DNA of 57,223 nt from a candidate division WOR-1 bacterium RIFCSPLOWO2_02_FULL_46_20. GTDB taxonomy: Bacteria > Margulisbacteria > WOR-1 > O2-12-FULL-45-9. Below the pieces are notes generated by a model that saw only the letters and a program-made list of their open reading frames with translations, was not told where the DNA came from and ran no database searches. Both the position numbers and the translations under genes were made by a program. The stretch spans positions 1-57,223 of the forward strand of contig METP01000048.1 of the NCBI GenBank assembly GCA_001771365.1. The letters run 5' to 3'. Shown here piece by piece: positions 619 through 13,765 of the stretch; position 1 is the first letter of the stretch, and the number at the start of each line of letters is the position of its first letter.

Positions 619-1344
619 ATGTTTAGAGAGATTTTGTTCAAAGTCTTCTGTTTTTCGGCGATCTTATCAGTTTTGACCTCGGCTTCTTTTGCCGATCGGC
701 GCTCTTATGTCTGGACATATGAATATGTCACGATGCCCCGCGGGATGGTGGAGGTCGAATATTACAATACGCTTGAATATCCCGACACGACCAACCCCAA
801 GGTCAATACCTGGAAGCACTGGGTGGAGCTCGAGTACGGCCTGACTGACAATTGGGATGTTAGCATGTACCAGACCTTCAAGCAGACCAATACCGCGGCG
901 GCCAACACGCTGTCGTATGACGGATTCAAACTGCGGACTCGTTACCGGCTGGGTGAAAGAGGGTCTAATCCGGTCGACATGCTATTGTATGCTGAATTGA
1001 TCGAGCCAAATGATCTAAGCAAAGCCGGCGTCTTCGAAGGTAAAGTCATCCTGGCCAAAGATATCCGGATGCTGAATTTCTCCTACAATTATATTATTAA
1101 GCGGGAGTTGACCGAGGCGGCCAAGACTGAGAACGAGTTCGCGGCCGGCGCCAGCGTCGAATTACGGCCGACTTTCAAAATCGGCCTGGAGGCCAAGGGC
1201 AATTATAGTACCGGCAAGCATTACGTCGGGCCGACGATTTCCTGGGCGCAGGAAAAATTCTGGCTGAATTTTGGCGCCGTAAGAGGCTTGGGCAATGGGG
1301 CAAATGATCTGCAAACGCGCCTGCTTATTGGTATTAATATTTAG
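619..1344 (+). CDS. Secreted outer-membrane beta-barrel protein, function unknown
   Basis: SD AAGGAGG, signal peptide ending SFA, alternating aromatic/hydrophobic beta-strand pattern, C-terminal strand RLLIGINI. Confidence 0.6.
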   Translation: MFREILFKVFCFSAILSVLTSASFADRRSYVWTYEYVTMPRGMVEVEYYNTLEYPDTTNPKVNTWKHWVELEYGLTDNWDVSMYQTFKQTNTAAANTLSYDGFKLRTRYRLGERGSNPVDMLLYAELIEPNDLSKAGVFEGKVILAKDIRMLNFSYNYIIKRELTEAAKTENEFAAGASVELRPTFKIGLEAKGNYSTGKHYVGPTISWAQEKFWLNFGAVRGLGNGANDLQTRLLIGINI

Positions 1345-1576
1345 TTCAGCTTTGCTGATCTCGGGCTGTGTTCCGGATGAGGAGCAGTCGGCGGCTTATA
1401 AGCTGTACAGCGCGAAGTGCAGTTCCTGCCACCGGCTGCTCCCGCCGGAGGATTATCCGCTGGAGAAGTTCGGTGAATATATCGAAAAATACGGCAAAGA
1501 GTTGACCCCGGAGGAGAAGACCCGGCTGCTTGATGGGTTGAGAGCCTATAAAAAGTTAAAGGAAGAACAAAAATGA
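1304..1576 (+). CDS. Small monoheme c-type cytochrome lipoprotein
   Basis: Lipobox ISGC and a single CSSCH heme-binding motif; start chosen at ATG 1304 (ORF track gives 1295). Confidence 0.7.
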   Translation: MICKRACLLVLIFSSALLISGCVPDEEQSAAYKLYSAKCSSCHRLLPPEDYPLEKFGEYIEKYGKELTPEEKTRLLDGLRAYKKLKEEQK

Positions 1577-5684: not shown

Positions 5685-6230
5685 ATGTTGCCGACAGAAA
5701 AATTGGAACAGGAACACGATGTTATTTTGAAGATGCTCAAAGTCATCCAGGCCGTATCCGGGAAAATTGAAGAAATCGATCAAAAAACCTTGAAGGATAT
5801 TATTGATTTCATCCGTACCTTTGCGGATCACTGTCACCATGCCAAAGAGGAAAAAATTCTATATGTTGAAGCGGAGAAACATGGTATCCCTAATGAGGGA
5901 GGGCCGATCGGAATGATGCTGGTCGAACATGATCAGGGGAGGGGTTATGTAAAAATGATGGATGAGGCTTTGCAGAAGGTTGGGAAAGGAGACAAAAAAG
6001 CGGCAAAACAATATAAAGAAAACGCCCTTCAATTCGTCGATCTGCTTGAACAGCACATCGGTAAGGAAAATCAGATTCTTTATCCAATGATTAATATGCA
6101 TCTCCCGGAAAAGCTGCAAAAGGTTATTTCTGATAGGTTTGAAAAGATGGAGAAAGAAGAAGTGGGGGAGGGAGTGCATCATAAGTATCACGCTTTGGTC
6201 GAGGAGATGGAGGTTAAGTTTTTGAAATAG
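5685..6230 (+). CDS. Hemerythrin-like (HHE) di-iron protein
   Basis: EH...HHAKEE...EH...HIGKENQILYP ligand pattern. Confidence 0.85.
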   Translation: MLPTEKLEQEHDVILKMLKVIQAVSGKIEEIDQKTLKDIIDFIRTFADHCHHAKEEKILYVEAEKHGIPNEGGPIGMMLVEHDQGRGYVKMMDEALQKVGKGDKKAAKQYKENALQFVDLLEQHIGKENQILYPMINMHLPEKLQKVISDRFEKMEKEEVGEGVHHKYHALVEEMEVKFLK

Positions 6231-6274
6231 GAGGAGAGAGAAGTCAACCCAAAAACTCTGAACGACATCACGCC

Positions 6275-6302
6275 TTGACATAAACCTTACAAAGTTTATA
6301 AT
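6275..6302 (+). promoter_or_regulatory. Consensus sigma70 promoter
   Basis: TTGACA 6275-6280, N16, TATAAT 6297-6302. Confidence 0.65.
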
Positions 6303-6365
6303 ATTTATTGGAGTCGGGAATAAAAAAAAGAAATAAGGGGGAAACAAAGGAATAATTTGTTTTTT

Positions 6366-6782
6366 ATGCAGCCAAAAGGGGAGAGTAAAATAACTAAGCC
6401 AAAAATACTAATAATAGATGATGATGATGATTTAGTTGCGGCTATGAAGATGGTTTTGGAACATAATTCATACCAGGTTGTGTCGGCCTCTTCCGGGACC
6501 GAAGGGCTAATAAAAGCCAAGAACGGAAACCCTGATTTGGTTATTTTGGATGTAATGATGGAAACAAGTGACAGTGGTTTTGAAGTGGCGCGCAAGATAA
6601 GGGGAGAAGCGGGCATAGCAAAGGTGCCGATCTTAATGGTGACGGCGATCAAGGAAAAAACCGGTTTTGATTTTAGTAAAGAGGCGGGAGACAAGGCTTG
6701 GCTGCCGGTTGATAATTATTTGGAAAAGCCTATTCGTCCAGATGAGCTCGTGTCTAAGGTTGCCAAATTATTGAATAAATGA
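6366..6782 (+). CDS. Single-domain response regulator (receiver); start uncertain
   Basis: ILIIDDD, PDLVILDVMM, MVTA and YLEKP motifs. Confidence 0.85.
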   Translation: MQPKGESKITKPKILIIDDDDDLVAAMKMVLEHNSYQVVSASSGTEGLIKAKNGNPDLVILDVMMETSDSGFEVARKIRGEAGIAKVPILMVTAIKEKTGFDFSKEAGDKAWLPVDNYLEKPIRPDELVSKVAKLLNK

Positions 6783-6807
6783 GTAGGGATATGCTATGAT
6801 AAGTTTA

Positions 6808-7128
6808 GTGAAAAAGTTATTAGCAATATTAATAATATCCTTAACAGTATTTAGCTGCAATGCAGCGTTGGCTAATTGTTGCGGTACAGCTTCTTCCTGT
6901 TGTGAGGGCAATCAGGCTTCCTGTCAGATTTCTCTGCCCGAAACGGCGGCAAGTTCCTTTAATCTAGAAGTTAAGCCTACGGTCTCAATTGCCTTTTTGC
7001 CTGCGATTAATGAACAACTTGAATTGGTCGATAATCTTAGAAAAACTGTCAGATTTTGTGATCTTCCGCCTCCGTTCCATCTTTTTGTTAACTTAACTAG
7101 TCAAATCCACGCTCCACCCGTTGCGTAA
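6808..7128 (+). CDS. Secreted Cys-rich uORF with C-terminal HAPP motif (DUF2946/CruR/CutF-like putative arrest leader)
   Basis: Signal peptide KKLLAILII...ALA; CC..CC..C and another C; PPP; ends QIHAPPVA. Lies directly upstream of cusCBA. GTG 6808 is 7 nt after the -10 TGcTATGAT (ORF track start 6796). Confidence 0.6.
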   Translation: MKKLLAILIISLTVFSCNAALANCCGTASSCCEGNQASCQISLPETAASSFNLEVKPTVSIAFLPAINEQLELVDNLRKTVRFCDLPPPFHLFVNLTSQIHAPPVA

Positions 7129-7241
7129 TCTTCCTGTTTCTACTTCATAAAGATTGGTTGAAAACTTGCGTGCGTAGTGTTATTCTTTCAGAAGGCAATA
7201 AAAAGGAAATCAAAGAATTAATTAATTTTTGGAGAATATAA

Positions 7242-8459
7242 ATGAAAAGATTTGGTGTTATTTTGTTGCTGGGCTTTTGGCTGTTGGGATTTGTTAAGCC
7301 GGTGTTCGCGCTGACGCTTGACGAAGCGGTCAGCCAGGCCAGGGAACACAATTCCGACCTCCTCTTTGCTCAAAAACAATGGGAATCAATAAGGGCAAAG
7401 GTTCCTCAAACTATTAGCCTGGCCGATCCCCGCGTCGGCGTGGAGTATGAACAAATTCCGTCTGGTTCGCGCAATCTCGAAGAGGGGATGAAAATGTATT
7501 CTTTTGAGCAAATGGTCATGTTTCCCGGAAAAATTTATGCCGAATGGCAGATGAGCGGAAAAGAAGCCGAAATGTTTTTCGCTCGCTACCAAGCGAAATT
7601 GAGAGAAATCATCAGCCAGGCCAAGGCCGCTTATTATGACTTATATTTGACTGATCGCTCAATTGCCGTTATGAATGAAGTTGCCGGTTTGTTGGATAAA
7701 ATTAAAAAGAGCGCCCAGGCAAAATATATGGTTGGGAGTGTTATGCAGATGGATGTCCTGCAGGCGAACATCGAATATCAATTAGTCAGCAATGACTTGC
7801 TGACCATGCGGCAGGAAAGAGGGGTTAAAGAAGCAAAATTAAAGGTGTTGCTTAGCCGAACAGATCATTCAACGATTGAAGTTGATCAGGATTTTTCTTT
7901 GCCCGCGACGATTGAGTCAGTGGAAAGATTAGAGAAAACGGCCAGCGCCAATCGGCCCGAATTGCTGGCCATGAAAGCCGAGCTGGAGATGAAGGATGCC
8001 GCCCACTTAAAATCAAAAATGGATTATTTTCCTGACACAATGCTGGGTGTCAAAAAACGGGTTGGAGATGGCTGGGATGCCATGTTCTCTTTTTCCCTTC
8101 CTCTATATTTCTGGAAACAAAGTTATGGGGTCAGTTCAATTGGGCTTGAACGCGAAGCCGCCAAGGCCGCTTTCTCTAACATGGAAAACATGACGCTCTG
8201 GGAAGTTAAAGAAGCTTATATTGCGGCGGACGCCGCGCGGCGAACTTATTTGCTTTACCAGGATAAAATTATTACTCAAAGCGAGCAAACCCTGAAGGCG
8301 GCTTTAAAAGCTTACCAGACCGGGACGGTCGATTTTCAGGCGCTTTTACTGGCAGAGAGAATGTATAAAGAAGCCAAGCTTAAGCTGTATGAGAACCAGG
8401 CGAACTATGGAAAGGCTCTGGCGGGGCTGGAGAGAATTATTGGCAAGGGGGTAAATTGA
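7242..8459 (+). CDS. TolC-family outer-membrane factor (CusC/CzcC-like)
   Basis: Signal peptide, LTLDEAV..A...N, coiled-coil repeats, first gene of an RND operon. Confidence 0.85.
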   Translation: MKRFGVILLLGFWLLGFVKPVFALTLDEAVSQAREHNSDLLFAQKQWESIRAKVPQTISLADPRVGVEYEQIPSGSRNLEEGMKMYSFEQMVMFPGKIYAEWQMSGKEAEMFFARYQAKLREIISQAKAAYYDLYLTDRSIAVMNEVAGLLDKIKKSAQAKYMVGSVMQMDVLQANIEYQLVSNDLLTMRQERGVKEAKLKVLLSRTDHSTIEVDQDFSLPATIESVERLEKTASANRPELLAMKAELEMKDAAHLKSKMDYFPDTMLGVKKRVGDGWDAMFSFSLPLYFWKQSYGVSSIGLEREAAKAAFSNMENMTLWEVKEAYIAADAARRTYLLYQDKIITQSEQTLKAALKAYQTGTVDFQALLLAERMYKEAKLKLYENQANYGKALAGLERIIGKGVN

Positions 8460-8460
8460 A

Positions 8461-9561
8461 ATGAAAAATCAGAAATCCGAATCCTCACCCCGTCCCTCGA
8501 CTCGCTTCGCTCGCTCGGGACACCCCTCTCCATCGAAGATGGAGAGGGGAATGAATTCTCCGCCGCAGGCGGAGAAGAAAGGGGTGAGGTGGGTTATTTT
8601 GCTTTGGGTTTTGGTCATTTTTGTTGCCGGCTGCGCCCCAACCCGGAAGACAGGTCATGAAGGCCATGAGCCGGGTAAGAAGATATTGTTTTACCGTAAT
8701 CCGATGAATCCGCAAATTACTTCACCCGTGTTCATGAAAGATTCAATGGGGATGGATTACGTGCCGGTTTATGAACAGGCCAAAGGAGCGGCAGAAGGTG
8801 AAATATCTATCAGTTCTGATGAGCAGAAGCTCATCGGAGTTAAAACCGAACGAGTGGGGCGGCGCCAACTTTATAAAGAGATTCGCACAGTTGGGACGGT
8901 GGCTTATGACCCGGAGCTTTACGTGGCGCAGGAGGAATATCTTGGCGCGCTTGGTTTGAGCGATGAAGCGCTTATTGAATCCGGCCAAAAAAGATTAATG
9001 ATATTGGGTTTGAATGATGAGCAGATCGGTAGGTTGCAGAAAGAGGGTAAAGCGCAGGAGAATCTTATTCTGCCTGAAGAAGAGACCTGGGTTTATATCA
9101 CGATCTATGAGAATGAACTGGGCTTGGTTAAGGCGGGCACACCGGTGGAAATTGACACGATTGCTTTCCCGGGTGAGGCCTTTTATGGGAAAATCGCGGC
9201 GGTTTCTCCGGTGCTGGATCCCATGACCAGATCAGCAAAAGCCAGAGCGGAAGTTCAAAATCCCGGCCAAAAATTAAAGCCGAATATGTACGCCAACGTG
9301 AAGATCAAGATTGATCTGGGCAGCCGGTTAGCGGTTGATGAAGAAGCGGTTATTAATACCGGTAAGCGAACCCTGGTGGTGGTGGCCAAAGGTTCCGGCA
9401 ATTATCTTAGCCGCGAGGTGAAGTTGGGACAGAAAGCTGATGGTTATTATGAAGTTTTGGGCGGGTTGAAAGAAGGAGAGATGGCCGTAACCACTGGTAA
9501 TTTTCTAATCGATTCGGAATCACGCTTAAAGTCTACTAGTGGTGGCGAACATCAGCATTAA
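8461..9561 (+). CDS. cusB: CusB-type periplasmic adaptor (efflux RND MFP); alternative start GTG 8584
   Basis: Heavy-metal-binding motif YRNPMNP...KDSMGMDYVPVY, LKPNMYA, GNFLIDSES; lipobox VAGC. Confidence 0.85.
   Translation: MKNQKSESSPRPSTRFARSGHPSPSKMERGMNSPPQAEKKGVRWVILLWVLVIFVAGCAPTRKTGHEGHEPGKKILFYRNPMNPQITSPVFMKDSMGMDYVPVYEQAKGAAEGEISISSDEQKLIGVKTERVGRRQLYKEIRTVGTVAYDPELYVAQEEYLGALGLSDEALIESGQKRLMILGLNDEQIGRLQKEGKAQENLILPEEETWVYITIYENELGLVKAGTPVEIDTIAFPGEAFYGKIAAVSPVLDPMTRSAKARAEVQNPGQKLKPNMYANVKIKIDLGSRLAVDEEAVINTGKRTLVVVAKGSGNYLSREVKLGQKADGYYEVLGGLKEGEMAVTTGNFLIDSESRLKSTSGGEHQH
8483..8589. repeat. Composite palindromic (REP/RPE-like) element inside the cusB 5' end
   Basis: Terminal IR CCTCACCCC/GGGGTGAGG enclosing hairpins 8492-8521, 8523-8549 (12-bp stem) and 8556-8576 (9-bp stem). 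Confidence 0.75.
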
Positions 9562-9564
9562 ATA

Positions 9565-12500
9565 ATGACGAAGCTAGTCGAATACATAATTGAGTTTTGC
9601 GCGAAGAACCGGCTGATAGTCCTTATCCTGGTCGGCGCTCTGACGCTGGGAGGGTTCTTTGCCCTGCGCCGCGTTCCCTTGGACGCTCTGCCGGACCTTT
9701 CTGACACGCAAGTTATTGTCTATTCCCAGTGGGACCGGTCCCCGGACATTATCGAGGACCAGGTAACTTACCCGATCATCACTTCACTCCTGGGCGCTCC
9801 CAAAGTCAAAGCGATCCGCGGGTTTTCTGACTTTGGCTTTTCCTATGTTTATGTAATCTTTGAAGATGGGACCGACATCTACTGGGCGCGCTCCCGCACC
9901 CTGGAATATTTAAACAAGATCGTTCCACTCCTTCCGGCGGGGGTCAAGACCGAATTAGGTCCGGATGCCACGGGCGTTGGTTGGATCTTCCAGTACGCAT
10001 TAGTTGATGAAACCGGCCAACATTCATTGGCTGATCTGCGCAGTTTCGAGGACTGGTACTTGCGCTATTATTTGCAATCCGTTCCCGGGGTGGCGGAGGT
10101 GGCTTCAGTCGGTGGTTTTGTCCGCCAGTATCAGGTCAATGTTGATCCTAGCGCTTTGCAAGCGTATAACATTCCCCTGATGCAGGTGGTTGAAAATATC
10201 CGTAAAAGCAACAATGATGTTGGCGGAAGATTGGTTGAATGGAGCGGGATAGAATATATGGTGCGGGGCCGCGGCTACATCAAAACCACGCAGGATATTG
10301 AAAAAATCGTCGTGGGCTCCGGCATGAATGGGGCGCCGGTCACGATTGGACAGCTTGGCCAGGTTACTTTGGGGCCGGAGATGAGGCGAGGCATTGCTGA
10401 ACTCAACGGCCAAGGGGAAGTGGCTGGCGGCATTGTGGTTATGCGCCACAAAGAGAACGCGCTGGATGTCATTAAGCGGATCAAGGCCAAGCTCAAAGAG
10501 ATCGAACCCGGGTTGCCTAAAGGGGTAAAGATCGTAACCACTTATGACCGCTCCGACTTGATCGAAGCCTCCATTGGTACCGTCCGCGACGCGCTTGTCC
10601 AGGAATTAATTATTGTCAGCTTAATGCTGATTTTCTTTTTATGGCATCTCCCTTCGGCCCTGATCCCTATCATCGGGTTGCCCATCGCGGTGCTGATCGC
10701 CTTCATTCCCATGAACTGGATGGGACTAACATCAAATATTATGTCGCTGGGCGGAATTGTGGTCGCCATCGGCGACATGGTGGACGCTTCGATCGTGCTG
10801 GTCGAGAATGTCCATAAAAGATTGGATGAATGGGCGAAGGGTTTGCGGAAAGGAACTCGTGAAAGCATTATGATCGGCGCGATGAAAGAGGTCGGCCCGC
10901 CGATCTTTACTTCACTCTTGGTTATGGCGATCGCTTTTATGCCGGTTTTTATGCTCGAGGCGCAGGAAGGGCGCCTTTTTAAGCCTCTGGCTTTCACCAA
11001 AAATTATTCTATTTTCTTTGCGGCGCTGCTGGCGATAACCTTGATTCCGGCGCTGATCATGATCTTTGTCCGCGGGAAGATAATCTCCGAAGATAAACAT
11101 CCGGTCAGTCAATTTTTGATCCGGCTTTATCGTCCAGTTGCCCTCTGGTCGATCAAGCACCGGAATCTGGTGGTAATAGGAGCGCTGGCCGGCATTCTGA
11201 TAACCGTGCCGATATTTTTAAAAATGGGTTCGGAATTTATGCCTCCTCTTTATGAGGGGAGCATTCTTTATATGCCGACGACACTGCCGGGGTTGTCGGT
11301 GACCGAAGCCTCCAGGCTGCTGCAGATTCAAGATAAGGTCTTAAAGTCTTTCCCTGAAGTGAATAGCGTTTTTGGCAAGGCGGGGAGGGCCGCGACATCG
11401 ACAGACCCAGCTCCTTTCTCCATGATGGAGACAACGGTGATCTTAAAAGATAAAAAACTTTGGCGCCGCGGGATGACCTACGAAAAACTTGTCGACGAAA
11501 TGGATAAAAAAATGAAAATTCCGGGAGTATCTAACGCCTGGACCATGCCCATCAAAGCCAGGAACGACATGTTGACGACTGGAGTGCGCACGCCAGTGGG
11601 TATCAAGGTCTATGGTTCCAATCTTGAAGAAATTGAACGCCTTGGTATGCAGCTGGAACAGGTTTTGAAAGAGGTCCCCGGAACGCGCAATGTCTTTGCG
11701 GAACGCGTGGCGGGCGGCTATTTCGTGGATTTTGATCTTAAGCGCGATCAGTTAGCGCGCTACGGCTTGACGGTTGACGACGCCAACATGATCGTTATGT
11801 CGGCTATCGGCGGTGAAAATGTTTCAACCGTCATCGCCGGCCGGGAGCGTTATCCGATCAACGTCCGCTACGCCCGGGAACTGCGGGGTGAGATCGACGA
11901 TTTGAGGCGGGTGTTGGTCCCCGTCATGAACGGGGCGCAAATCCCGATTTCCGAGATCGCGGACATTAATATCCGTTATGGCCCCGCTATGATCCGGGAC
12001 GAGAACGGACTGCTGGCCGGTTATGTTTATGTGGATATTGTCGGCCGCGACGTCGGGGGATATGTTAATGATGCCAAGAGAGCGGTGAGAGATAAAGTGA
12101 AATTACCTACAGGATATTCACTGGCCTGGTCCGGCCAGTATGAGTCGATGCAAAGGGTCGCTGACCGATTGAAACTCTTTGTCCCTTTAACTCTTTTCGT
12201 CATTTTCATCTTGTATTTCTTTACATTCGGCTCCATCATTGAAACCCTGATTATTATGCTTTCGGTCCCTTTTGCCCTGGTTGGCGGCATCTGGTATATA
12301 TATCTCTTGGGATACAATATGAGCATTGCGGTTTGGGTGGGGTTGATTGCCCTGGCGGGGGTGGCGGCGGAGACCGGCTCGATTATGATTGTTTACCTTG
12401 ATGAATCGTACGCCAGGCGTAAAGCAGAAGGAAAAATGAACAATCTGGCCGACCTTTACGAGGCGGTAATGGAGGGCGCTGTCCAGCGCCTGCGGCCGAA

Positions 12501-12699
12501 GCTGATGACGGTGGGGGCTAATATCTTCGGACTTATGCCGGTGATGCTGGCTGTGGGGATCGGTTCGGACGTGATGAAACGGATCGCCGCGCCGCTGATC
12601 GGCGGGCTGGTCTCCTCGACGATCTTGACGTTGGTCGTCCTGCCGGCGATCTATACCATCTGGAAAAACAAAACTGAAGTGCGAGGAGGTGAAGAATGA
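9565..12699 (+). CDS. cusA: CusA/SilA heavy-metal (Cu/Ag) RND efflux pump
   Basis: [57 protein letters not shown]; 1044 aa. Confidence 0.95.
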
Positions 12700-12977
12700 G
12701 AAATTTGCTTATTATTTTAATAGCGGGAATATTGTTGAGCGGATTAGCCTGGTACTTTATTGGTGGACACACAAACCAGCCGGCAACCATGCAAACGCAA
12801 AGTGAAATGTCTGGAGCGGCCGGGTCAGCAGGGACTGTAACCTGTCCGGTTACCGGGGGAAAAATTGAAGCGGCTAAGGCCTATGCCAAAACTGTTTATA
12901 AGGGGAAAACCTATTATTTCTGCTGTGCCGGCTGTCCGGAAGAGTTTAAGAAAAACCCGGAGAAATACGCTAAATGA
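12696..12977 (+). CDS. Membrane-anchored YHS/TRASH metal-binding protein
   Basis: CPVTG...[24 protein letters not shown]. Confidence 0.85.
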
Positions 12978-12991
12978 AGGGGAATTAAGAA

Positions 12992-13402
12992 ATGAAAAAA
13001 ACTATTTGCGGGATATTTATTGCGTTGCTCATGACCGCGGCCGGCTGGGCGGTGGATGTGACCAGAGAAGTTTCAATTATTGCCAGGCAATTTAACTTTC
13101 TGCCGGGTAAAATTGAAGTTGTCAAAGGGGTCCCCGTGAGGCTTTACCTGACAAGCTTGGATGTTACCCATGGCCTCTATATCGATAAGTTTAAGATCAA
13201 CCAGAAAATGGAAAAGGGTAAACTAACAGTTGTGGATTTTATCCCCGACGAAGCCGGGGAATATGAATTTAAATGTTCAAATTTCTGCGGGCTCGGGCAT
13301 GGCGGTATGAAGGGAGAACTGGTGGTGATTGAGCCGATGTCAGCAATGCCTAAAATGCCGGGGATGGAGGAAATGCAGCACAATATGCCAATGCATCATT
13401 GA
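12992..13402 (+). CDS. Secreted cupredoxin with CuA-type ligand set and Met/His-rich tail
   Basis: DVTHGL and CSNFCGLGHGGM; tail MSAMPKMPGMEEMQHNMPMHH. Confidence 0.8.
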   Translation: MKKTICGIFIALLMTAAGWAVDVTREVSIIARQFNFLPGKIEVVKGVPVRLYLTSLDVTHGLYIDKFKINQKMEKGKLTVVDFIPDEAGEYEFKCSNFCGLGHGGMKGELVVIEPMSAMPKMPGMEEMQHNMPMHH

Positions 13403-13432: not shown

Positions 13433-13765
13433 GTGATTGAAATGTTTCATGATATTATTGGGTGGACGACTTTTGTTTTGAATATAATTGGCGCGCTCAT
13501 TACGATTTGGGGGATTCTTTTAGCATTGCTTGAGTTTTTAGGAAAGGAGATTTTTAACCGCAAAGAAGCGATTGAGCTGAATGAAACCATTCGCTTGAAG
13601 CTGGGCAGTTATTTGGTACTGGCTCTTGAATTTTTTATTGCCAGCGATATCATAAAGACGGTAATTACTCCTACCTGGGAAAGCTTGGGAATTTTAGGGG
13701 TGATCGTTGCGGTAAGGACGGTGTTAAGTTATTTCTTGACTAAAGAACTGGAAAAGAAGCATTAA
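13433..13765 (+). CDS. DUF1622-like membrane protein
   Basis: IRLKLGSYLVLALEFFIASDIIKTV..PTW..LG.L..IV.VRT.LSYFL..E signature. Confidence 0.8.
   Translation: MIEMFHDIIGWTTFVLNIIGALITIWGILLALLEFLGKEIFNRKEAIELNETIRLKLGSYLVLALEFFIASDIIKTVITPTWESLGILGVIVAVRTVLSYFLTKELEKKH

Follow-up and report, generated by a model that had tools for sequence, protein, structure and literature searches.

The stretch considered here, hereafter the window, comprises 57,223 nucleotides (nt) of contig METP01000048.1 (positions 1 to 57,223 of the forward strand) from candidate division WOR-1 bacterium RIFCSPLOWO2_02_FULL_46_20 (GenBank assembly GCA_001771365.1), an uncultured groundwater bacterium of the phylum that appears in the records as Candidatus Margulisiibacteriota/Saganbacteria. 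Within it a small open reading frame (ORF), which we refer to as the leader ORF, lies directly upstream of a set of cusCBA-type efflux genes, and an initial annotation had proposed that its product senses copper or silver during its own export and switches on the efflux operon through ribosome arrest. We compared the leader ORF with its relatives in the phylum and suggest, with little better than even confidence, that it encodes a leader peptide which heads cusCBA, senses metal and acts in cis, in the manner of CutF and CruR. The elements of the leader region, in window positions and with lengths in amino acids (aa), are as follows.

6357-6782, plus strand: receiver-only response regulator gene (PF00072), in which no output domain was found.
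6771-6800, plus strand: promoter-like site, TTGAAT (6771-6776), an 18-nt spacer and a TG-extended TATGAT (6795-6800), 9/12 matches.
6796-7128, plus strand: leader ORF, 110 aa from ATG 6796, or 106 aa from GTG 6808 if leaderless.
6796-6873, plus strand: signal-peptide-like N-terminus by inspection, residues 1-26, ending in A-L-A.
6877-6924, plus strand: Cys cluster (residues 28-43, CC-x5-CC-x6-C), presumed to bind metal and proposed as the site at which periplasmic Cu(I)/Ag(I) is sensed.
7072-7080, plus strand: PPP, residues 93-95, at what is in the family a semi-conserved Pro position ~12-15 residues before the terminal PP.
7108-7119, plus strand: tail H-A-P-P, followed by V and A codons and the stop at 7126-7128.
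7111-7119, plus strand: A-P-P, the proposed pause site within the tail.

The ORF with its signal peptide, its Cys motif, its PPP and a HAPP two residues before the stop had all been recognized in the initial annotation, and we found each of them at the positions listed; the length of ~106 aa reported there is reproduced when translation begins at GTG 6808. The N-terminus carries K/R residues, a hydrophobic stretch and then A-L-A, and AlphaFold2 modelled residues 2-26 as a helix with a block-mean predicted local distance difference test (pLDDT) score of 87-94. The tail is rare in the window genome: of its 2714 ORFs with 60 aa or more, just 2 end in [AG]PPxx, the leader ORF among them. The leader ORF had no match in Pfam or NCBIfam.

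The genes that follow are consistent with a copper locus.

7242-8459, plus strand: outer-membrane factor (OMF), CusC/OEP/TolC-like, 405 aa (PF02321, E 3.4e-37).
8461-9561, plus strand: periplasmic adaptor, CusB-like, 366 aa (PF16576, E 1.3e-31; the CusB/CzcB NCBIfam models scored below their cut-offs).
9565-12699, plus strand: CusA-type heavy-metal RND pump of the CusA/CzcA family, 1044 aa (TIGR00914, 1133.7 bits against a cut-off of 701).
12696-12977, plus strand: YHS-domain protein (PF04945, E 1.4e-13).
12992-13402, plus strand: cupredoxin-like protein with a Met/His-rich C-terminal tail (PF13473, E 1.3e-10).
13433-13765, plus strand: DUF1622 membrane protein, after the cupredoxin-like gene.

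The best solved relative of the pump is E. coli CusA, at 1092.7 bits compared with 532 for ZneA, and the pump has Met aligned at chain positions 580, 630 and 679 of 3t51_A, which we take to be the CusA methionine-site residues M573, M623 and M672. By these sequence measures the pump is of the CusA type, that is, for monovalent copper and silver. The YHS and cupredoxin-like genes after cusA probably belong to the same copper locus. These coordinates and profile matches bear out the arrangement first described, a 113-nt gap followed by cusC, cusB and cusA, and so too its remark that no CusRS, CueR or CsoR gene is adjacent to the leader ORF. Models for CsoR, CueR and CusS-type regulators gave nothing over curated cut-offs in the window genome (86% complete), nor in four relatives (87-100% complete), while EF-P and Rho were encoded in all five of the genomes searched.

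To what family the leader ORF belongs was not apparent from searches with the single sequence. In a word index of 5.8 billion sequences the only true match was the leader protein itself, and phmmer against a representative set of 1.8 billion likewise returned no true match but itself. A second database entry, P0002, proved to be a compositional artefact (a Ser/Thr-rich repeat protein of 5404 aa without CC), and the ESM Atlas neighbours, unnamed clusters and DUF6769, shared 105-127 features, which is below same-family level. The database copy of the leader itself (P0001, on a 1499-base contig) differs from that of the window by a single residue, N39K, inside the Cys cluster. A six-frame search of 61 related genomes, on the other hand, gave weak yet full-length matches to ORFs with the same layout, and a family profile built from ten sequences and run against all 146 genomes of the phylum (E <= 0.01) matched in 20 of them, yielding 18 full-length ORFs of 100-112 aa, annotated at source as hypothetical proteins. 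Loci are designated below by L numbers and genomes by G numbers. Two matches were dropped, L034 (genome G100), an unrelated membrane ORF that matched over positions 5-63 alone, and L035 (genome G061), which has a signal peptide and CC and lies before a TolC-like gene but carries its PP 21 residues before the stop; P0007, with 8 residues after PP, was left out of the alignment.

The 18 sequences are conserved in a very uneven manner. Every member has a signal-peptide-like N-terminus by inspection, and the only invariant columns of the alignment are three Cys (C29, C35 and C36) and the two terminal Pro (P107 and P108), with a fourth Cys (C43) at least 90% conserved, so that the family Cys pattern reads C-x(5-12)-CC-x(4-8)-C. 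Averaged over pairs of members, identity amounts to 0.25 for the signal peptide, rises to 0.35 across the Cys cluster, drops to 0.13 through the middle and recovers to 0.34 in the tail, reaching 0.45 over the last 12 residues. The middle, 40% of the peptide, is thus nearly unconserved, yet the distance from CC to PP stays at 66-74 residues in all 18 members. At the semi-conserved Pro position the window and L007 have PPP, several members PP and most others a single P.

At the C-terminus, A or G directly precedes the terminal PP in every member, exactly two residues follow PP in 16 of the 18 and five in the other two, and the tail consensus is h-x-[KS]-x-x-H-[PQ]-x-x-[AG]-P-P-x-x-stop. The residue before A/G varies (3 members have H, 5 have T, 5 have N, 4 have I and 1 has A). 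A His usually stands four residues before A/G; the window and L003 lack it and carry an adjacent His instead, such that 17 of 18 members have His at -4 or -1 from [AG]PP. The Ala/Gly and first Pro codons show synonymous variation, which argues for selection on the peptide. Of the two terminal prolines, the second is encoded by CCY in 16 of 18 members, compared with CCY shares of 47% among Pro codons in long ORFs of the window genome and 38% among the other Pro codons of the family, and the first is never encoded by CCC; because the members are related, this bias is suggestive only. AlphaFold2 run with the 18-row alignment gave a mean pLDDT of 59.9 for the leader, with 44-61 in blocks after residue 30, and predicted no secondary structure after residue 26.

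Judged from this comparison the leader ORF is a conserved gene, and the parts of it that are conserved are only those that a sensor of the CutF/CruR type would need, namely an export signal, a Cys cluster, a narrow spacing and a stop-proximal PP. The initial annotation had suggested that conservation of the Cys cluster, of [RH]APP and of their spacing be examined across relatives; the cluster and the spacing are indeed kept, together with [AG]PP, while [RH]APP is not.

The genomic setting is conserved as well. In all 18 loci the leader lies directly upstream of a metal-related gene, at gaps of 26-113 nt, that of the window being the longest. Eight leaders, the window included, directly precede TolC-like/CusB-like genes, and the other ten directly precede genes for small secreted Cys/Lys-rich proteins of 45-80 aa, five of which were scanned against Pfam and gave no match. 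Genes farther upstream differ between loci, and therefore the conserved linkage is that of the leader with its downstream gene. The genes for Cys/Lys-rich proteins after the leader lie at the following positions of their own loci, and at four more loci.

L004, 1251-1460, minus strand: Cys/Lys-rich protein.
L006, 1848-2069, plus strand: Cys/Lys-rich protein.
L008, 1872-2111, plus strand: Cys/Lys-rich protein.
L030, 1226-1447, minus strand: Cys/Lys-rich protein.
L033, 1865-2071, plus strand: Cys/Lys-rich protein.
L011, 1495-1629, minus strand: Cys/Lys-rich protein.

These small secreted proteins resemble periplasmic metallothioneins, and six of their loci adjoin genes that we read by eye as TonB-dependent receptor, TonB, small membrane protein and queA.

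Whether the leader ORF heads its own transcript is ambiguous from the window sequence alone, because an AGGGA lies 6 nt 5' of ATG 6796 and the response regulator gene ends 13 nt 5' of the same codon, its 3' end containing the putative -35 box of the leader. From the promoter-like site at 6771-6800 the mRNA is predicted to start at ~6807-6808, giving a leaderless GTG start. A scan of the 1.3-kb region found 5 such sites against 2.6 +/- 1.6 in shuffles, and since the count is not enriched the site is by itself not significant. The family is more informative. TATGAT stands at -13 relative to GTG 6808, which fits the pattern of 11 of the 18 members, where a -10-like TANNNT begins 12-16 nt before the start codon and no Shine-Dalgarno-like motif is present; this count takes the fitting GTG start for the window and for L033, and with the starts originally listed it is 9 of 18. 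The same pattern occurs before none of the 18 downstream genes, at 7.7% of random genome positions and at 19% of the first-Met starts of long ORFs, and a Shine-Dalgarno-like motif is present in 3 family members. The leader ORF is thus probably leaderless and first in its transcript. The promoter and leaderless start of the initial annotation are in this way borne out as to the site and the family pattern, while the site carries no significance of its own and the start codon stays ambiguous.

Within one genus, four genomes carry a tRNA-Pro(GGG) gene on the leader strand whose end lies 10-11 nt ahead of the leader start, the interval containing no Shine-Dalgarno-like motif.

L004, 1808-1885, minus strand: tRNA-Pro(GGG).
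L005, 1808-1875, minus strand: tRNA-Pro(GGG).
L006, 1409-1486, plus strand: tRNA-Pro(GGG).
L013, 1416-1493, plus strand: tRNA-Pro(GGG).

This placement may be due to chance, or may link the pause to proline decoding, or may provide a near-leaderless mRNA by way of tRNA processing. In genome G036, moreover, efp (854-1393, minus strand) is divergent from the leader of L003 (1498-1824, plus strand) and lies ~105 nt upstream of it; in the other four genomes checked efp is located elsewhere.

Given a leader with these parts, a mechanism analogous to that of CutF can be proposed. The mRNA would start at or just before the leader start codon, and the signal peptide would bring the translating ribosome to the Sec translocon. 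With the ribosome at A-P-P, the four-Cys cluster would lie 63-79 residues behind the peptidyl-transferase centre and on the periplasmic side, given that a nascent chain occupies ~30-40 residues in the tunnel and ~15-25 in the translocon. As long as no metal is bound, the slow Pro-Pro bond would form with the help of EF-P and of pulling on, or folding of, the exported part, and termination would follow two codons on. Binding of Cu(I) or Ag(I) to the Cys cluster would lengthen the Pro-Pro pause, and the ribosome parked beside the stop codon would raise expression of cusC-cusB-cusA, an ON-with-metal logic as in CutF and not as in CruR. On this scheme one would expect a polyproline pause that responds to EF-P, and not a RAPP arrest that depends on Arg. 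For the window the weakest step of this scheme is the output, from the pause to cusC expression.

CutF of Rhodobacter capsulatus, encoded in cutFOG, is described as carrying a signal peptide, a CxxxC motif and a C-terminal PPP, and copper as prolonging an EF-P-sensitive stall that melts a stem-loop over the cutO ribosome-binding site (bioRxiv 10.1101/2025.02.05.636593; PMC9973294). Like CutF, the leader would be a small peptide exported by Sec, its signal peptide followed by a Cys motif and its C-terminus carrying a polyproline, and it would be encoded first before a copper-detoxification gene; it would also be expected to share the ON-with-copper logic, the EF-P-sensitive pause and the lack of Arg-dependent arrest. 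It differs in its C-x(n)-CC-x(n)-C pattern as against CxxxC, in ending in [AG]PP as against PPP, in a Cys-to-PP distance of 66-74 residues compared with roughly 40-45, in having no convincing stem-loop over the downstream ribosome-binding site in the window, in being probably leaderless, and in its phylum.

CruR (Bp2923) of Bordetella pertussis, which defines DUF2946, is described as having a signal peptide, a CXXC motif and RAPP three residues before its end; the Cys-to-proline spacing in DUF2946 is 45 +/- 2 residues, CruR is first in copper operons, and copper relieves the arrest, upon which Rho terminates (PMC9426467). The leader resembles it as an exported small upstream ORF with a Cys motif and x-A-P-P two to three residues before the stop, as the first gene of a copper-related operon, in the long untranslated gap that follows (162 nt for CruR and 113 nt for the leader) and in that Rho is available in the window genome. 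It lacks, however, the Arg of RAPP, the CXXC and the 45-residue spacing. In CruR copper relieves arrest and shuts off an importer, whereas a pump would need the opposite sign; CruR is also EF-P independent, and the C-rich tract is missing from the window gap. The peptides of the ApdA/ApdP/SecM type, with RAPP or RGPP, share with the leader an APP or GPP close to the C-terminal end, a small secretory product and a position before a regulated gene, but their essential Arg is missing in all 18 members and the genes downstream of the leader are not protein-localisation genes.

The family also satisfies the layout rules by which Öztürk et al. (2023) defined 5,334 'CutF-like' proteins, which ask for a length below 150 aa, a PP among the final 15 residues, a signal peptide at the N-terminus and a neighbouring gene on the same strand no more than 1000 nt away (PMC9973294); our members have 100-112 aa, PP 2-5 residues from the end, and gaps of 26-113 nt. 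According to the same paper the commonest downstream neighbour of such proteins is the OEP (CusC/CzcC/SilC) of RND systems. The initial annotation did not know this regulatory mode as characterised for Cus systems, and this must be amended in that the OEP/CusC association is already in print (PMC9973294), although in the literature compared here the link between Cus pumps and such leaders appears to be a bioinformatic association only. In the main text of PMC9973294, the part covered by our count, 'margulis' occurs 0 times, and members of the phylum could stand in its supplementary lists. On the other hand, every testable sequence-defined feature of DUF2946 is absent from the family, be it a PF11162 match, the CXXC, the Arg or the 45-residue spacing. 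We regard the family, on sequence grounds, as apparently a previously unrecognised one in a new phylum, Arg-less, with longer spacing and probably leaderless, within a layout class that had already been described.

Several observations weigh against a regulatory leader of this type, and most of them concern kinship and the output step. The support for a leader role is comparative only. PF11162 (DUF2946) matched 0 of the 18 members at E <= 10, and kinship with CutF and CruR is therefore not established; against the 146 genomes of the phylum the model gave 0 hits over its cut-off and two sub-threshold hits away from leader loci, and no conserved CxxC column, as in the CXXC of CruR or the CXXXC of CutF, is found in the family. 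Arg is absent before [AG]PP in 18 of 18 members, and the proline motif of CutF did not stall strongly on its own in the LepB-SecM assay described in PMC9973294. The absence of a predicted fold after the signal peptide carries little weight because an 18-row alignment is shallow. In addition, the leader accompanies only a part of the candidate pumps: CusA/CzcA-family pumps scored over cut-off in 41 of the 146 genomes, compared with leader-OMF loci in only 8, and L038, whose OMF is a close relative, carries a DUF2490 gene upstream in place of the leader. The leader is, then, not obligatory for these pumps.

In other genomes different genes hold the same position. Among related OMF loci, found using an OMF alignment, a CsoR repressor gene lies directly before the OMF gene in L043 (1166-1498, plus strand) and L045 (1176-1472, plus strand), whose record labels are Planctomycetia and Elusimicrobia, and a Metal_resist/LTXXQ protein gene lies before it in L044 (1029-1481, plus strand; record label Clostridia), which indicates that different regulators or accessories occupy the position of the leader elsewhere. 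One Margulisiibacteriota genome carries a CsoR gene whose end overlaps with the leader.

The output step depends on the gap between the leader and cusC.

7129-7241, plus strand: AT-rich gap, 113 nt (C 12%, G 18%).
7158-7186, plus strand: promoter-like site TTGAAA-17-TATTCT with TG, 9/12 matches.
7231-7234, plus strand: Shine-Dalgarno sequence GGAG of cusC, within the gap.

Here, too, the findings mostly count against the scheme. Shuffled sequences fold at least as well as the region 7060-7260 (z = +1.80), and an Rfam search of 6000-8000 gave no match at E <= 1. The probability of pairing between the APP codons and the cusC Shine-Dalgarno sequence is 0.03 in the window, and no more than 7 of the 18 loci (L004, L005, L006, L013, L002, L003 and L032), mostly with short gaps, reach 0.4 or above; masking the footprint of a paused ribosome lowers the pairing of the window Shine-Dalgarno sequence from 0.70 to 0.42 only. 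A stem-loop or anti-Shine-Dalgarno model is thus unsupported for the window by either the folding z or the pairing probabilities, and a Rho/rut model finds no C-rich tract in the gap, given its base composition. Unmasking of the ribosome-binding site has support in 7 of the 18 relatives and none in the window, and blocking of Rho, which is encoded, is possible as the output but has no sequence signature. The promoter-like site in the gap scores the same as the leader's own, and -10-like hexamers, unscored, can be read by eye in the gaps of several relatives. No sequencing run recorded as RNA was listed as containing the stretch.

Given these difficulties we considered what else the ORF might be. 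It might encode a stable small Cys-rich protein, periplasmic or membrane-associated, that serves as a metal-binding accessory or chaperone of the Cus pump in the manner of CusF or CzcI, its H-x-x-x-[AG]PP tail serving the mature protein and not translation. The signal peptide, the four conserved Cys and the His at -4 or -1 in 17 of 18 members would all suit such a protein, as would its constant position beside metal genes and the want of support for an mRNA switch in the window. CusF, the chaperone of cusCFBA, is like the leader a small exported protein of a cus operon; the leader, however, has no Pfam match and no predicted fold, precedes cusC instead of lying between cusC and cusB, and is Cys-based, while the metal chemistry of CusF is based on Met, His and Trp. 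CzcI of Cupriavidus metallidurans comes closer in position, since by its description in PMC9973294, on which this comparison relies, it is a small exported protein encoded directly before czcCBA; it is there a 'suggested' metal sensor without a C-terminal proline motif, so that its role as a regulator is likewise only suggested. Against an accessory protein stand the lack of a predicted fold after the signal peptide (with the shallow alignment already mentioned), a middle of 0.13 identity whose length is nonetheless kept at 66-74 residues, the PP-to-stop distance that is exact in 16 of 18 members and that a function of the mature protein would not require, and the constant place of the leader upstream of two unrelated kinds of gene. 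We consider an accessory role unlikely, though it deserves serious attention.

A different view of the same facts would treat these leaderless leader peptides as a family specific to the phylum that evolved independently and came to resemble DUF2946 by convergence, with a Cys-to-pause distance of ~70 residues and a plain [AG]-Pro-Pro pause, controlling both Cus pumps and metallothionein-like peptides. The sensor may then be fully outside the membrane at the pause, and the capacity for decoding proline may modulate the pause, a suggestion that draws on the CCY codons in 16 of 18 members, on the tRNA-Pro(GGG) gene before the ORF in four genomes and on the efp neighbour in one. To so specific an evolutionary account we attach a rather low likelihood.

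It is also conceivable that cusCBA is driven and regulated from a promoter of its own in the gap, for example by a regulator yet to be identified or by the neighbouring response regulator, and that the leader has no effect on it. The site at 7158-7186 equals the leader promoter in score (9/12, TG), and in the gap of L026 a heptamer, GTTAGTT when read on the coding strand, is repeated in tandem in 5.6 copies (1445-1483, 84% matches) immediately before a TATAAT, an array that could be an operator or an RNA element; similar heptamer units and a TATAAT hexamer can be read by eye, unscored, in the gaps of L002 and L027. Promoter-like sites are not enriched, however (5 vs 2.6 +/- 1.6), and the scan reported no terminator-like site after the leader ORF, which leads one to expect read-through. 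A separate promoter would hardly fit into the gaps of 10 relatives, which measure 26-68 nt and in some cases just 26-34 nt, and the linkage of the ORF to its downstream gene is kept while upstream neighbours vary. A leader without effect on the operon is accordingly improbable in our estimation.

The proposal that HAPP is a His variant of RAPP conferring a strong, EF-P-refractory arrest of the ApdA/ApdP/CruR type, which was part of the initial annotation, draws on the layout that HAPP two codons before the stop of a small exported protein shares with RAPP in CruR (PMC9426467) and on its presence in 3 of 18 members, but it is very hard to maintain, since the residue before A/G is variable and never Arg, making the family motif [AG]PP and not [RH]APP, and RAPP-type arrest is described as needing the Arg, AAPP variants being arrest-defective and yielding full-length product (PMC12992588).

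A cis-acting leader of the CutF/CruR type thus continues to be the reading that we favour at the level of confidence given at the outset, and the metal-sensing interpretation from which we began is partly supported by the family comparison. If this reading is true, co-translational sensing of metal across a membrane by a nascent exported peptide, the principle of CutF and CruR, would extend to a candidate phylum and to Cus-type efflux pumps, and would operate where the five genomes searched gave no score over cut-off with the usual models of copper regulators. Longer spacing and a missing Arg would be natural variants that bear on pause strength and on the geometry of sensing, and the ten Cys/Lys-rich loci would point to unannotated periplasmic metal-buffering peptides under the same control. 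Because the family is invisible to PF11162 and is defined by layout only, such leaders may be far commoner than domain searches show, and searches based on layout, that is on a signal peptide, a Cys cluster, a fixed spacing and a stop-proximal Pro-Pro, may be needed to find them.

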